Assembly: GCA_963815115.1 (NCBI GenBank)
Contig: CAWFFN010000008.1
Span: forward strand, 672,001-736,000
From: an uncultured delta proteobacterium
GTDB lineage: Bacteria > Desulfobacterota > Binatia > DP-6
Reading direction: 5' to 3'
DNA length: 64,000 nucleotides
The notes beneath the pieces are model-generated. The model saw only the letters and a program-made list of their open reading frames with translations. It had not been told where the DNA came from and made no database searches. Of this stretch, positions 24,366-61,968 are shown piece by piece. The number at the start of each line of letters is the position of its first letter. The first letter of the stretch is position 1. A program made the position numbers and the translations under genes.

Positions 24366-24438
24366 GCCACCCTAGCTCAGTTGGTAGAGCAACTGATTCG
24401 TAATCAGTAGGTCGCCGGTTCGACTCCGGCGGGTGGCT
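24366..24438 (+). tRNA. tRNA-Thr(CGT)
   Basis: Acceptor GCCACCC/GGGTGGC, D arm GCTC..GAGC, anticodon ACTGA-TTCGTAA-TCAGT, T arm GCCGG-TTCGACT-CCGGC; CCA not encoded. Confidence 0.97.
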
Positions 24439-24635
24439 CTCTCGGGCGTCAGCCTGCCGGTCGAAAGATGGTGATGGCGCCCTCCAGGAGGGATGCGCTC
24501 ACGTCGGTGCGGCGGAGCAGGGTGTGGAGCATCGAGAAGATGAAGCTTGAGTTCGAGGCAGGGCTGGCCGCCGCTGGACGCGCCCGAACGGCAGTGGAGG
24601 TGAATCTCTGGCCCTGAGTCGCGCCGAGCGGGAAC

Positions 24636-24974
24636 GTGCACGAGGCGATCCACGACGCGCGCCCGACGATGGCCTTCTACGGGGGCATCAAACAGTACGA
24701 ACCCTTCTTCGAGGCCCACGGTTTCGGAGACGTCGCGCGGCGTCTGCAGGCGGGCGTACAACGGGGCGACTACCTGAGCGTGGCCCCTCTGGTCCCGGAC
24801 GAGATGGTTCGCGCGTTCGTGGCGGTGGGGGTCGGCCGACGAGGTGCGCTCGCGGGTCGAGTCGCTCCGGACCTTCGCCGACTCCCTCTGTCCGGTGCCG
24901 CCGGTGTACGGCTGCCGTTCGAAAAGATCGCCCGCTACCACAACGCGATCGCACACACCCTCTACCCGGCATGA
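24636..24974 (+). pseudogene. C-terminal fragment of an LLM-class flavin oxidoreductase (frameshifted)
   Basis: AFYGGIKQYEPFFEAHGF..LVPDEMVRAFVAVG; no N-terminus. Confidence 0.7.
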
Positions 24975-25019
24975 AAGGCGCCGCCACGGCTTTGAGCGGG
25001 CGGCTCCCCGGATCCCGGT

Positions 25020-25175
25020 TTCCGGGCGCGAAGGGGACCGTCGCCGCTGCACCACGTCCCGCCAGCAGCATGCCGCGGAGAGTGAAACCCTCGATGCCCT
25101 GCTCGTCGATGAGCGCGAGCGTGGCGTTGAGCAGCGCTCCGGCGCAGCTCGCCATGGTGCCAGCTCGCGCCATCG
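25020..25175 (-). pseudogene. TetR regulator N-terminal remnant
   Basis: HHGELR / ALLNATLALIDEQGIEGFTLRG split across frames. Confidence 0.6.
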
Positions 25176-25294
25176 CCGCGTTCGTCCGTAGCCTTCTCTT
25201 GACAATGTCGAGCCACCGAAGGCATCTGAACGACGTCAAGAGCGGCCGGGAGGACGTCGACGTCGCCCCCGGCGCGACCAGGGGAGGACAGTCC

Positions 25295-59452: not shown

Positions 59453-60658
59453 TCACCGGCCGTCCACCACCACCGCCGCCGCGATCGCCGCACATCGCGC
59501 CGCGCGTGCCGGGTCAGCCGTGTCCGATCGCGCGGCCGTCTCGGCGGCGAGCCAACGGCGGAGGCGGTTGCCGAAGCGCGCGCGCCGCAGCGCGGCGGGC
59601 ACGCTGTCCAGATGGCCGAGGTGGTCGTCGAGGTACGCGTCGAGGAGGGGCGCGAGCACGAGCCGGCTCCGGTCGGGTCGCGCGCGGCGGGCCAGTGCGA
59701 CGGCCGTCTCGCCGAGCTGCGTGCAGGCCGCGTGCAGAGCGGGCGTGTCGGCCGCGGCGCGGAGGCGGCCCAGCAAGTTGGCGGCTGCGGCGCAGGCCAC
59801 GTCGGGTCGCGCCGCCCCGGTGGCGCGGATGCGATCGACCAGCTCGCCGAGGTCGAGCGCGAGCCGGAGCTGCCGCCTTGTCGGTACGGGCGCCCCGTCG
59901 AGCAACGCGTCGATGCGTCTCCGGAAGCCCAGCTCGAGTATCGTGTCGTCAGCCGCGCGGCCGAGCACGTCAGCATAGCGTTCCCGCATGGCGGGCGTCA
60001 GGCCGAGCACGTCGACGATGCCGTTCACGATGGCGTCCCGTGGCGCCGTATCCGGAACCACCGCCAGTGGCGCGCCGCGGGCGGCCAGGGCCTCTTCGAG
60101 GCGCGCGTAGGCGGCGTCGAGTGCGACCCGACGGCGGCGGTCGCGCGTGTGGTTCGCCTCCGCGGCCACATGTCCCAGGACGTCGTCGAACTCGGCCTCC
60201 GTTCCGGCGAGCACGACCGCGGCGTCGTCCACCGTCGCCGCGGCGAGCAGCGCGGGCGTCTCGACGCCGATCGCCTCGCAACCGCGCAGATGGGTGTACT
60301 CGTCGTGGGAGAGCCGTACTTCGATCAGAGGCCCCGGCCGGTCGGCGGCAGCCCCGCGCAGGTCCCAAGCCGTCTCCGCCCAGCCCGAGATGACACCGCG
60401 GTCTCCACACGTCGCGCACCTCCACTCGACCGTCTCGGTCGCGTCCGAGCGCCGCACGCTGACGTGCCCCGTACACCGCTCCCGGCGGTGCGACCGCCGG
60501 CAGTGGACCGCAGACCCGTCCCAGGCGCCGTCTGGGCGCACCGTCGCCGCCTCGACGAGGTGGCACCAGTACGCTGCGCGCCGCCCGGGCGGGCCGCCGA
60601 CCGGCAGGCCGGCGTCGTCAAGGAAGTGACGGAGGTCGGTGATCCAAGAGCCGGGCAT
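59453..60658 (-). CDS. Hypothetical protein with N-terminal Cys-rich (Zn) domain and helical C-terminus
   Basis: WITDLRHFL, C.RR..RERC.G, WRCATCGDRGVISGW. Confidence 0.7.
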   Translation of the reverse strand: MPGSWITDLRHFLDDAGLPVGGPPGRRAAYWCHLVEAATVRPDGAWDGSAVHCRRSHRRERCTGHVSVRRSDATETVEWRCATCGDRGVISGWAETAWDLRGAAADRPGPLIEVRLSHDEYTHLRGCEAIGVETPALLAAATVDDAAVVLAGTEAEFDDVLGHVAAEANHTRDRRRRVALDAAYARLEEALAARGAPLAVVPDTAPRDAIVNGIVDVLGLTPAMRERYADVLGRAADDTILELGFRRRIDALLDGAPVPTRRQLRLALDLGELVDRIRATGAARPDVACAAAANLLGRLRAAADTPALHAACTQLGETAVALARRARPDRSRLVLAPLLDAYLDDHLGHLDSVPAALRRARFGNRLRRWLAAETAARSDTADPARAARCAAIAAAVVVDGR

Positions 60659-60731
60659 CGAGTGCCGAGGTGTCAATCCCGGACCACGTCGATCAGCCCG
60701 GTGTCGGCGAGTGTCTGGTCACTGTAAGCAC

Positions 60732-61217
60732 TCACTCTCCGACAAGCGCAGAGGCGGCATCGAGTAGGCCGGGCGTCACGTACATGCCGACGGCAGCCAG
60801 ACGCTCCAAGACCGGCCGCGCTGCCGGAACGGCCCCCAGCCGCTTGGCTCGGAGCACGACTCCGATCGTCCCGAACGCCGGTACCCCAAGCGCGGCAGCA
60901 CAGCGTCGAGCCTCGCGGTCGTCCAGGATCGCGTGGGCGCCGGGCAGCGCCCGTGCTACCGCGAGCACCGCCGACTCTCCGGCGCCCAGATTCCACGCAG
61001 CGATCGCCGCCGGCACGCTACCCGGGTCGACTCTCGTGGCCCACGTCGCGCGCAACAGTGCTTGCGCCGCCATATCCTCACCACCCTTAATTTCCACTTC
61101 ATCCACTACGGAGACGGGAACACACACGATACGCGCCACTGATCGCAGGAGTTCCAAGCGTCCGATTCGCGACAGCAGGATAATCGGGGAGGCGTTGACG
61201 ATGGCCTGCTCAACCAT
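60732..61217 (-). CDS. DUF3368 PIN-like toxin
   Basis: NASPIILL, LGAGESAVL, LDDREARR, GTIGV. Confidence 0.88.
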   Translation of the reverse strand: MVEQAIVNASPIILLSRIGRLELLRSVARIVCVPVSVVDEVEIKGGEDMAAQALLRATWATRVDPGSVPAAIAAWNLGAGESAVLAVARALPGAHAILDDREARRCAAALGVPAFGTIGVVLRAKRLGAVPAARPVLERLAAVGMYVTPGLLDAASALVGE

Positions 61218-61461
61218 CGCCCAGTTCGCGCGGAAGTTCGTCCGGGTCGACCTGCACTACCTCGATCCGGCGAGCGGCAAGCGCGTCGATGAAGTCCGCG
61301 CGGGGCACCCCCGCGATCTCGGCCGCACGCCCCTGCGACAGCAGGCCGCGTCGATACCAATCGACGGCAGCCGCCAGTCGCACCTCGGCCTGCATCTCGA
61401 CGGGCGAGCGATGTAGTGCTGCCAAGAGGTCATCTGGGAGGGCGATCGTTACGGTCGTCAT
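61210..61461 (-). CDS. UPF0175 antitoxin
   Basis: LAAAVDWYRRGLLSQGRAAEIAGV.RADF. Confidence 0.88.
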   Translation of the reverse strand: MTTVTIALPDDLLAALHRSPVEMQAEVRLAAAVDWYRRGLLSQGRAAEIAGVPRADFIDALAARRIEVVQVDPDELPRELGDG

Positions 61462-61762
61462 CCTGATCTCCTTCGCTGAGGCCGCCTGGGCGATCACGCC
61501 CGGAGCTATTGTCACCGAGCGAGTCACTCGTCGGAAACCCCTTGTAGCACAGGAGACGCGGGGCCGCTCTGCCGGGAGTGCGGTGAGCATGCCAATCGAG
61601 GAGTCGGAAGCGGCGGTAAAAGTGGGTGAAGTCCTCGGGCCGTTCAAGGCCGCCGGGCCCGCAATGAAGGCAGGCAAGGCCCATACGCGCCGTGCCGACC
61701 TCCCATGGGCGGCTGAAGGCCGCGCCCGCCAGCAGCGTCGCGGCACACTCTCGCCGCGCGTG

Positions 61763-61968
61763 GAATCAATAGGTCACTGCCTCACCTGCGCATCGGTCAG
61801 TCTCCATCCAGTCACCATGCCGATGCCTGCCGGTGCCTCCCGCTGGGTCAGCGCCGACGCGTAACCCCCGAATCTTCCAAGACACGGCCACCCGCCGGAA
61901 CCTCCCGGCAACCGCCTGCGTCCTTTCGTAATCAGTAGGTCGCCGGTTCGACTCCGGCGGGTGGCTCT
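61763..61968 (+). repeat. ~200-bp att module, copy 2 (44 bp identical to 24397-24440 at 61925-61968)
   Basis: Direct repeat of 35952-36154 at an offset of 25810 bp. Confidence 0.93.

Follow-up and report, generated by a model that had tools for sequence, protein, structure and literature searches.

How does a single tRNA gene come to be followed by a long run of gene blocks, each bounded by a copy of the tRNA's own 3' half, when none of the blocks in view encodes a recombinase? This question is raised by a stretch of 64,000 nucleotides (the window) from an uncultured delta proteobacterium of the Binatia (GenBank assembly GCA_963815115.1; 6.89 Mb in 12 contigs), whose positions 1-64000 correspond to positions 672001-736000 of contig CAWFFN010000008.1, here called C8. 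The window has a G+C content of about 70% and contains a single tRNA gene, an intact tRNA-Thr(CGT), which is also the genome's sole gene with a CGT anticodon. A first-pass annotation, made by a model from the sequence alone, had read the array downstream of this gene as the serial capture of similar-sized, non-autonomous cassettes mobilised in trans by an integron-like or satellite-like system. Our analysis leads to a more conventional answer: the locus is probably a fossil accretion array, in which tyrosine-integrase elements would have integrated repeatedly at tRNA-Thr(CGT) and left behind integrase-less blocks resembling cis-mobilizable elements (CIMEs). As such, it is a large example of a known process and no new kind of system.

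Attachment-site copies downstream of tRNA-Thr(CGT)

The tRNA gene, the attachment-site (att) copies and the blocks that they bound are arranged in the window as follows.

24366..24439, + strand, intact tRNA-Thr(CGT) (ARAGORN; Rfam tRNA, 71.4 bits)
24441..36114, block 1, 11.7 kb
35947..36114, + strand, type-1 module (P arm): pseudo-core GAGAATCAGTAGGTCA, then about 150 bp ending in CCTGCGTCCTT
36115..36158, + strand, att copy 2, first 40 of 44 nt identical to the tRNA 3' half
36159..48923, block 2, 12.8 kb, composite
48924..48937, + strand, att copy 3, a 14-nt stump with its module almost wholly deleted
48938..61924, block 3, 13.0 kb
61763..61924, + strand, type-1 module, second window copy
61925..61968, + strand, att copy 4, 44 of 44 nt identical to the tRNA 3' half
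61969..64000, start of block 4, which extends to C8:746675 past the window

The 3' half of tRNA-Thr(CGT) from position 24397 onward represents the proximal att copy (attL). When its 42 nt, starting with TTCGTAA, are used as the query, they are matched at 36115 with two mismatches, which occupy the final 2 nt, and at 61925 with none; 100 shuffles gave a chance expectation of 0.00 matches for such a 42-mer. The recurrence at 48924 is the exact 14-mer TTCGTAATCAGTAG, which is otherwise present in the 6.9-Mb genome only within the full cores, and about 11 nt of the adjoining module (CACCCGCCGGA) are retained directly upstream of it. All three recurrences reported by the first-pass annotation are hence borne out, and so are its block sizes (11,718, 12,809 and 13,001 bp).

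A whole-genome BLAST search with the tRNA half and the module, which had been proposed as a check, detected ten att copies spread over 113 kb (C8 696,397-809,461), with the array continuing for about 75 kb beyond the end of the window; no copy was found on any other contig of the 6.9-Mb genome. Their cores start at the following positions of C8.

696,397, tRNA-Thr(CGT) itself
708,115, module and core
720,924, 14-nt stump
733,925, module and core
746,675, module intact; after TTCGTAAT the core is replaced
770,866, module and core
780,160, inverted copy adjoining an IS3 insertion sequence (IS)
795,810, 11-nt stump
796,775, module and core
809,418, type-2 module and core

Nine of these ten copies share the orientation of the tRNA gene, the exception being the inverted one. 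Sequence identity among the repeats begins exactly at the anticodon loop and stops at the 3' end of the tRNA plus 2 nt. Furthermore, the cores form a decay gradient: those at 708,115, 733,925 and 770,866 are perfect over 40-44 nt, and those at 780,160, 796,775 and 809,418 carry one or two changes. Direct repeats of the 3' part of a tRNA that bound the units, with the intact tRNA at one end only, are what an accretion array displays. Collectively, the shared orientation, the P-arm module, the range from perfect to degraded cores and the absence of the blocks from congeners (see below) uphold the earlier proposal of anticodon-loop att scars left by serial capture at one tRNA.

The module beside the cores

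A type-1 module of about 205 bp lies on the left side of six att copies, and these modules are 84-94% identical among themselves; for the two copies in the window (35973-36154 versus 61783-61964), the identity is 93%. A type-2 module with a different sequence is found at 795,810 and 809,418. The left edge of the type-1 module is formed by the pseudo-core GGAATCAGTAGGTCA, which had been listed previously as degenerate cores at 35947 and 61763. These degenerate cores do exist, but they are fixed parts of the conserved module and not separate scars: the pseudo-core is positioned at a fixed distance in all six module copies of the genome and in 19 of 19 metagenome or metagenome-assembled genome (MAG) contigs with enough left flank. 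Conserved within the module in this way, it is an inherited module part and does not represent a separate integration scar made in this genome. Since a tyrosine integrase adjoins the same module and core in two metagenome contigs (L047 and L053; see below), the sequence data identify the type-1 module as the P arm of an ordinary attP belonging to a conventional tyrosine-integrase element family.

The final 12 nt of the tRNA also occur in the module in inverted form (CCACCCGCCGGA). This copy pairs with the core in a single-strand fold, and module plus core fold better than shuffled sequences (z = -3.4). Rfam recognised no RNA family in the module; the real tRNA was its only match. The last ~45 nt of each type-1 module (e.g., within 61880-61968) comprise a 7-nt 5' acceptor strand (GCCACCC) and a 5-bp hairpin at the position of the D-arm. 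Module and core together therefore resemble a badly degraded whole tRNA, although neither ARAGORN nor Rfam makes a tRNA call here.

At C8:746675-746968, the type-1 module and TTCGTAAT are followed by a conserved sequence of about 300 bp in place of the tRNA half. This alternative junction recurs in the metagenome contigs L055, L058, L060 and L062, and at its start the ~300-bp sequence has a 12-bp hairpin and another degenerate stretch that resembles a core. It has the appearance of an older att fossil that an element lineage has carried along.

Search for recombinases

Consistent with the earlier claim that the window blocks carry neither a tyrosine nor a serine recombinase, none of the 111 open reading frames (ORFs) between 22.7 and 64 kb matched the Pfam families Phage_integrase, Resolvase or Recombinase. 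A six-frame scan of the genome with PF00589 gave 18 matches at E ≤ 0.001 and 24 at E ≤ 10; none of them, even at E ≤ 10, lies in the window, and PF00239 and PF07508 had no match on contig C8. We also searched C8:690-820 kb by tblastn with 13 integrase ORFs of this genome, three integrases of relatives and two partner proteins (an excisionase-like HTH_17 protein and an AAA_25 protein). With these 18 queries, nothing better than E 0.1 was obtained in the window part. The integrase remnants in each block that would have pointed to ordinary eroded islands were thus looked for throughout the window, and none was found.

As controls, the att copies at the tRNA genes for Ala-GGC, Arg-TCG, Arg-ACG and Lys-CTT each have an integrase match within about 0.7 kb; the lack of an integrase is consequently a property of the tRNA-Thr locus and not of the method. 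In the whole array, only two integrase remnants came to light. The first, at 797,198-797,308 on the + strand, is a C-terminal piece of about 25-37 amino acids (tblastn E 0.003-0.007; PF00589 E 0.004 at C8:797207-797308). As a candidate for the integrase of its own block, the piece at 797,207-797,308 was rejected, since its strand is opposite to the usual arrangement; it is possibly a stray fragment. The second, at 815,279-815,849 on the - strand, is a pseudogene of a P4-type integrase (Arm-DNA-bind_3, E 1.4e-15) with internal deletions. The cognate integrase, for which a search beyond the 64 kb had been proposed, was not found in the 12-contig assembly; a copy may lie on unassembled DNA.

The module family in metagenomes

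A 31-mer of the type-1 module was found in 20 contigs, of which 19 come from soil metagenomes and one from a MAG (L043, labelled Actinomycetota bacterium). In L047, the core is directly followed by a gene for a 422-amino-acid tyrosine integrase (Int_N and Phage_integrase domains) that reads towards the core, an HTH_17 excisionase-like gene, and a gene for an AAA_25 protein; L053 carries the same integrase. Of the 12 contigs that extend at least 300 nt past the right side of the core, two hence have an integrase beside it. The integrase ORF of L047 reads through the core into the module. When the resulting tail is compared with the modules of this genome, the amino-acid identity (67-84%) is lower than the nucleotide identity (84-91%), which indicates that the module is conserved as DNA and not as protein.

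The closest paralogue of the L047 integrase in this genome is 42% identical and resides at tRNA-Arg(TCG), in an 11.6-kb element (C7:914570-926260) with a 401-amino-acid integrase, an HTH_17 gene, a frameshifted prim-pol/D5 primase gene and an IS3. This element also carries a bAvd-like gene followed by three genes with FGE-sulfatase domains, which we take to recall the targets of diversity-generating retroelements.

The metagenome contigs also contain junctions of the kind seen in the window. The junction between the core and the UvrD_C fragment of block 2, without an integrase, is shared with the diverged contig L050 at 83% identity, and L043 comprises a type-1 core, an integrase-less block of 3.9 kb and then a type-2 core. 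DNA searches at the family and order level, covering 25 genomes, yielded no further module copies.

Relatives and synteny

For comparison, we relied on one genome per species, namely four congeners and a genome of the same family (G006). In one of the congeners, G002, the tRNA-Thr gene is followed by ORFs of 276 and 486 amino acids, a PIN_3 gene and an intact P4-type integrase of 410 amino acids. The genome under study contains a deleted form of this island at 814,897-815,883, past the last att copy, consisting of a fragment of the 486-amino-acid ORF and the integrase pseudogene described above, whose pieces are 66-94% identical to the G002 integrase; its PIN_3 gene is located at 738,735-739,196. 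At 3-4 kb upstream of the tRNA, the left flank matches G002 best at the same relative place, and no att remnant is visible between PIN_3 and the integrase in G002. This arrangement fits a sequence of events in which later arrivals would have displaced an older, genus-level island from its position next to the tRNA.

Most of the 39.6 kb of block DNA in the window is unmatched in the four congeners and G006. Only short, scattered pieces are shared: the IS256, toxin-antitoxin (TA) genes, the HSP20 gene, an aminotransferase-APH pair situated 8-10 kb from the tRNA-Thr of G002, and the DUF4331 gene. The latter (43034-44141) is 99% identical over 1.1 kb to G001:C1:79394-80500, versus 77-89% for other shared DNA, which suggests that this gene was recently transferred.

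At the same tRNA site, G006 possesses a 10.2-kb element (integrase, primase, HNH, TerL) and then a second, truncated integrase. Its arm was considered as a type-1 module, but the 73% match was gone at E ≤ 1e-5 when the core was left out of the query; the two are at best distantly related.

Gene content of the blocks

The following features were assigned in the blocks and in the flank of the tRNA gene.

23569..24224, + strand, Phd/YefM-PIN TA pair in the chromosomal flank upstream of the tRNA (Pfam)
24636-24971, block 1, luciferase-like C-terminal fragment (Pfam)
27463-28470, - strand, block 1, IS256-type (Mutator family) transposase (Pfam)
36151-36483, UvrD_C/GajB-like C-terminal fragment abutting the core (Pfam, PADLOC)
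36845-37521, block 2, Xre/Gp49 TA pair
42765..42827, + strand, block 2, tRNA-Gly(CCC) 3' half, an att remnant of a different family
45035-45604, mid-block 2, DUF2283/MqsA-like TA pair
51914-53263, - strand, block 3, PriCT_1 primase-like ORF
57074-58573, - strand, block 3, XPB/PbeA-like helicase
60735-61746, block 3, DUF3368/UPF0175 (PDC-S70) pair
61769-62335, - strand, block 4, C-terminal fragment of a phosphorothioate-DNA-type HNH endonuclease
62650-63351, - strand, block 4, PRiA4_ORF3

The blocks have no general similarity to each other and are mosaics of truncated genes, IS, TA pairs and tRNA-Gly att remnants. Block 1 additionally encodes an M24 peptidase, a methyltransferase and a TetR regulator (Pfam, PHROGs), and it contains copies of pieces from the distal blocks that are 90-95% identical to these; its small ORFs at 35633-35997 are homologous to ORFs left of the module in L047 (tblastn). 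The order in block 2 is Xre/Gp49, aldehyde dehydrogenase, HIBADH, flavoprotein and MBL, followed by DUF4331, RidA, the DUF2283/MqsA-like pair, RibD_C and a hydrolase. Block 3 carries an IS110 transposase fragment, a SpoIIE fragment, an aminotransferase, APH, HSP20, a methyltransferase, PRiA4_ORF3 and a 407-amino-acid ORF, and its segment 58112-60718 is 90% identical to L043.

Among this cargo are ordinary enzymes (M24 peptidase, aldehyde dehydrogenase, HIBADH, flavoproteins, aminotransferase and, beyond the window, a carotenoid cluster) as well as defence-type genes (XPB/PbeA-like helicase, PDC-S70 pair, SNF2/DpdE-like, AEP-TOTE primase-helicase, phosphorothioate-type HNH fragment), in addition to TA pairs and IS. 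At the att side, gene fragments are present in all three window blocks (luciferase-like, UvrD_C, IS110). The right ends are modular: either XPB, PRiA4_ORF3 and the 407-amino-acid ORF or AEP-TOTE is followed by a set of small genes and then by the module. Three such sets occur (MazE/AbrB-like plus 81 amino acids; UPF0175/DUF3368; ORFs of 79, 75 and 122 amino acids), and right-end pieces are found reshuffled in metagenome contigs. TA genes had been said to cluster near the block boundaries; this applies to the Phd/PIN, Xre/Gp49 and DUF3368/UPF0175 pairs, but not to the DUF2283/MqsA-like pair in the middle of block 2.

Origin of the array

In the reading that we consider probable, elements recombining in the anticodon loop of tRNA-Thr(CGT), and bringing with them a replacement 3' half, would have integrated repeatedly at this one gene, each arrival shoving the earlier elements and the displaced tRNA halves further downstream. 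About nine att-bounded blocks would remain, still keeping their right ends with the P-arm module and usually a TA pair, while the attL-side integration and replication module (integrase, excisionase, helicase/primase) would have been lost to leave CIME-like units. Deletion of the int-proximal end may have taken place partly before arrival; integrase-bearing relatives may visit, add blocks and then leave or be lost ("hit and run"), and the TA-bearing right ends would persist. We infer the sequence in which this happened, the deletions and whatever movement integrase-less units may have undergone. An origin by deletion is consistent with right ends that match the integrase-bearing L047 and with the truncated genes at the att side, although no remnant of the integration module is left. 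Because the assembly contains no cognate integrase, the array would now constitute immobile cargo of metabolic and defence-type genes, TA pairs and IS.

Several observations sit uneasily with this scenario. Traces of the cognate integrase, excisionase and helicase are absent from every block in our tblastn searches, also when these were repeated with the integrase tail removed, and random erosion would not be expected to produce eight or more clean losses next to cores that are perfectly preserved. Ten of the 12 metagenome junctions likewise have no adjacent integrase, although a terminal attR would look identical, so that this count does not discriminate. Integrase C-terminal stubs of 30-50 amino acids to the right of cores in L044, L052, L045 and at the second core of L043 were first suggested by tblastn, but this idea was dropped, since only L047 and L053 were matched once the tail encoded by core and module had been removed from the query. 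When Logan contigs of four soil or rhizosphere runs were aligned to 24001-44000, contigs of about 99% identity tiled 36110-42578 and ended at the core and at 42578; no Logan contig spans a core and no core-to-core joint was among those listed, but the contigs break at the core, which speaks neither for nor against excision or an absence of block 1 from those organisms. The joints that were seen have sides of 20-28 nt or link tRNA-like pieces. Finally, the accretion model leaves the spacing of the cores unexplained: the intervals between direct copies measure 11.7, 12.8, 13.0, 12.75, 24.2, 24.9, 0.97 and 12.6 kb, and five of these eight fall within 11.7-13.0 kb (ratio 1.11).

Alternatively, the blocks could have been stripped entirely in place. 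In that event, every block would have arrived complete with an integrase and lost it here independently, and integrase-less units would never have moved. We deem this unlikely, even though truncated genes abut the att side in all three window blocks, the IS256, IS110 and IS3 copies, the segmental duplicates between blocks and the inversion beside an IS3 attest to heavy local rearrangement, and the distal P4-type integrase has been caught in the midst of its decay with internal deletions. The window blocks are devoid of any integrase remnant although 40-44 nt of their cores are perfectly preserved; the diverged L050 (83%) has the integrase-less junction of block 2, while four congeners of similar divergence lack the block; and the pseudo-core and the junction of the 746,675 type travel within the module family, which argues that composites move as units. 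Since the block 2 junction is shared with L050 and fossil att pieces lie inside the module family, we consider it more likely that composite or integrase-less units have moved to some extent than that erosion was purely local. That the repeats are not att scars in the first place, and instead stem from a small dispersed repeat (MITE-like or tRNA-derived), from local duplication or from misassembly, is hardly credible. Their unit is short (about 250 bp), contains an internal core-like repeat and folds better than shuffled sequences; however, all copies lie downstream of one tRNA, nine of the ten are oriented like it, the rest of the genome has none, the blocks between them lack general similarity, Rfam finds only the real tRNA, and independent metagenome assemblies contain the same module and core, in two cases beside an integrase whose ORF crosses the core.

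The spacing could also point to a dedicated capture platform, on which never-autonomous cassettes of about 12.6 kb would be deposited by an integrase acting in trans after delivery by a size-limited vehicle, such as a satellite-like capsid. Besides the five similar intervals, the two long ones being about double, other att-bounded intervals in this genome are of comparable length (11.6 kb at tRNA-Arg; 11.8 kb at tRNA-Gly(CCC), on a contig without an integrase; 12.4 kb at tRNA-Ala), the related elements that do carry an integrase are small and resemble P4 or satellites (prim-pol/D5 at tRNA-Arg; 10.2 kb in G006), and integrase remnants are missing from the blocks. We nevertheless regard such a platform as improbable. 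The assembly has no cognate integrase, its best paralogue being 42% identical and seated at another tRNA; packaging or capsid genes were not found in the 39 window ORFs scanned; IS insertions and foreign att remnants contribute to the present lengths of the mosaic blocks; and an insert of 20.7 kb flanked by tRNA-Gly sequences makes up most of one of the "double" intervals. In other genomes, the att-att distances at tRNA-Thr are 0.76, 3.6, 3.9, 10.2, 12.2 and 43 kb. The near-equal sizes, which the first-pass annotation had attributed either to a size constraint or to chance, do beat simple chance models (simulated P = 1.5e-4 for uniform breakpoints, and 1e-2 to 2e-4 for log-normal sizes), yet this statistic is post hoc with a ratio taken from the data, and the mosaic blocks and the scatter of distances in relatives speak against a constraint. 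We therefore report the regularity of about 12.6 kb as unexplained and not as evidence of a mechanism. It is a long shot that this period is real, with a small satellite-type capsid or a similar vehicle setting the length of integrase-less cassettes that a visiting integrase would deposit singly, a quantised landing pad for transduced cargo. If it were, the same traffic would also have produced the att-bounded units of about 12 kb at tRNA-Gly(CCC), tRNA-Ala and tRNA-Arg.

Comparison with known systems

An integron consists of a resident IntI integrase, an attI site, a promoter and cassettes, each with about one promoterless gene between attC sites. The array shares with integrons only the idea of an ordered capture of units at one site, and the proposed integron-like nature of the system finds no support. 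No integron head (IntI-type integrase, attI, promoter) is present, PF00589 matching in C8:696-815 kb only the fragment of about 30 amino acids and the distal P4-type pseudogene; instead of attC-bounded single-ORF cassettes there are units of 11.7-13 kb with many genes on both strands, bounded by repeats that represent the P arm and tRNA half of a tyrosine-integrase family. The unit sizes (11.7, 12.8, 13.0, 12.75 and 12.6 kb) fall in the range of phage satellites, about 10-15 kb. The integrase and replication module of a satellite is missing from the blocks, of which only block 3 has a primase-like (PriCT_1) ORF, and no head or packaging PHROG was recovered among the 39 window ORFs scanned, TerL and HNH being confined to the G006 element. 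Likewise, the families that define actinomycete integrative and conjugative elements (integrase, Rep, FtsK/TraB-type transfer gene) are absent among the ORFs scanned. What is present are att-flanked units without integration or transfer genes, as in CIMEs.

The closest parallels are provided by systems in which units accumulate at an RNA gene. As described in the relevant passages of McMurdie et al. (2011; PMC3146451), the ssrA islands of Dehalococcoides lie in tandem within about 100 kb downstream of a single-copy small-RNA gene and are delimited by direct repeats of its 3' end; the integration module adjoins attL when present, and 15 of the 31 islands lack it, for which the authors suggest CIMEs mobilised by accretion. 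So far as these passages go, tandem units, one RNA-gene target, 3'-end direct repeats and integrase-less units are common to both loci. The Dehalococcoides system, however, involves tmRNA, a serine recombinase and a 20-bp repeat, and about half of its islands keep the module, whereas here tRNA-Thr(CGT), a tyrosine integrase and repeats of 40-44 bp plus an arm of about 205 bp are involved, and none of about nine units has an integrase.

For streptococci, the sections of Guedon et al. (2017; PMC5704250) that summarise Pavlovic (2004) and Bellanger (2011) describe accretion of the ICESt1 type, in which CIMEs have lost the integration and transfer genes but kept attL and attR; an incoming relative integrates at a flanking att, and the composites can move together (PMC5704250). 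To judge from that summary, the att-bounded units stripped of integration and transfer genes are alike in both cases. In streptococci, one or two CIMEs lie beside an integrative and conjugative element, and excision and transfer have been demonstrated, whereas the array at hand is a long, partnerless run of CIME-like units.

A third parallel is offered by the tycheposons of Prochlorococcus (Hackl et al., bioRxiv 10.1101/2020.12.28.424599), which the available passages of that preprint characterise as tRNA-targeting tyrosine-integrase elements of about 10-20 kb, some of them resembling phage-inducible chromosomal islands. In their genomic islands, the same passages state, successive integrations displace older ones, and partial tRNAs and degraded remnants lie amid mostly non-element material (bioRxiv 10.1101/2020.12.28.424599). 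The tRNA site, older arrivals pushed inward and scattered partial tRNAs are, on this account, features in common with our array. Tycheposons belong to another phylum and another integrase family, their remnants include fragmented integrases, which the window blocks lack, and no regular spacing is reported in the passages concerned. In Streptomyces, an integrase-less pathogenicity island is reported to be mobilised by an adjacent integrative element (Zhang and Loria 2017); that case reportedly concerns two units at a protein-coding target and not an array at a tRNA. In the literature searched, we found no paper on the tRNA-Thr module family, and a description may exist elsewhere.

Implications

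The array, to which about nine steps have contributed genes of accessory metabolism, defence-type genes and TA pairs, amounts to about 113 kb, or about 1.6% of the genome, and it thereby indicates the extent of accretion that is possible at a single tRNA in a soil bacterium. With all integration modules lost and the att sites still readable, it provides a natural series for dating successive integrations, for asking why TA-bearing right ends survive while integrase ends vanish, and for learning whether an integrase supplied from outside could set CIME-like units in motion again. Since the module family occurs commonly in soil metagenomes, it also lends itself as a convenient marker in the search for such hot spots. 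Only the regular spacing has no explanation under current models.

Further observations

Three consecutive large ORFs (420, 514 and 644 amino acids) on the - strand of block 1, at 29088-33832, show a good codon-position bias in G+C; apart from a sub-threshold DUF1214 hit, they have no match in Pfam, PHROGs, PADLOC or NCBIfam. Beyond the window, at C8:772020-776971, a gene for an SNF2 helicase (DpdE/ZorD-like) adjoins one for an AEP-TOTE primase fused to a helicase, a pair of the conflict-system type; the AEP-TOTE gene recurs with 86% identity beside the module in metagenome contig L062.

Besides the tRNA-Gly(CCC) 3' half in block 2, the array contains two further ones at C8:747481-747533 and C8:768190-768250, and two of the three copies share 61 bp at 100% identity. 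The two distal halves bracket a 20.7-kb segment (TetR to NmrA-like, including the carotenoid cluster) within the 24-kb interval, as would result if an att remnant carried here had served as the insertion site of an element specific for tRNA-Gly. Contigs C9 (at its start) and C12 end in tRNA-Gly(CCC) sequence. On C12, which has no PF00589 match, tRNA-Gly(CCC) 3' halves at 3-47 and 11808-11852 lie 11.8 kb apart; they may delimit a second integrase-less, att-bounded unit of about 12 kb and may be the reason for the break in the assembly.

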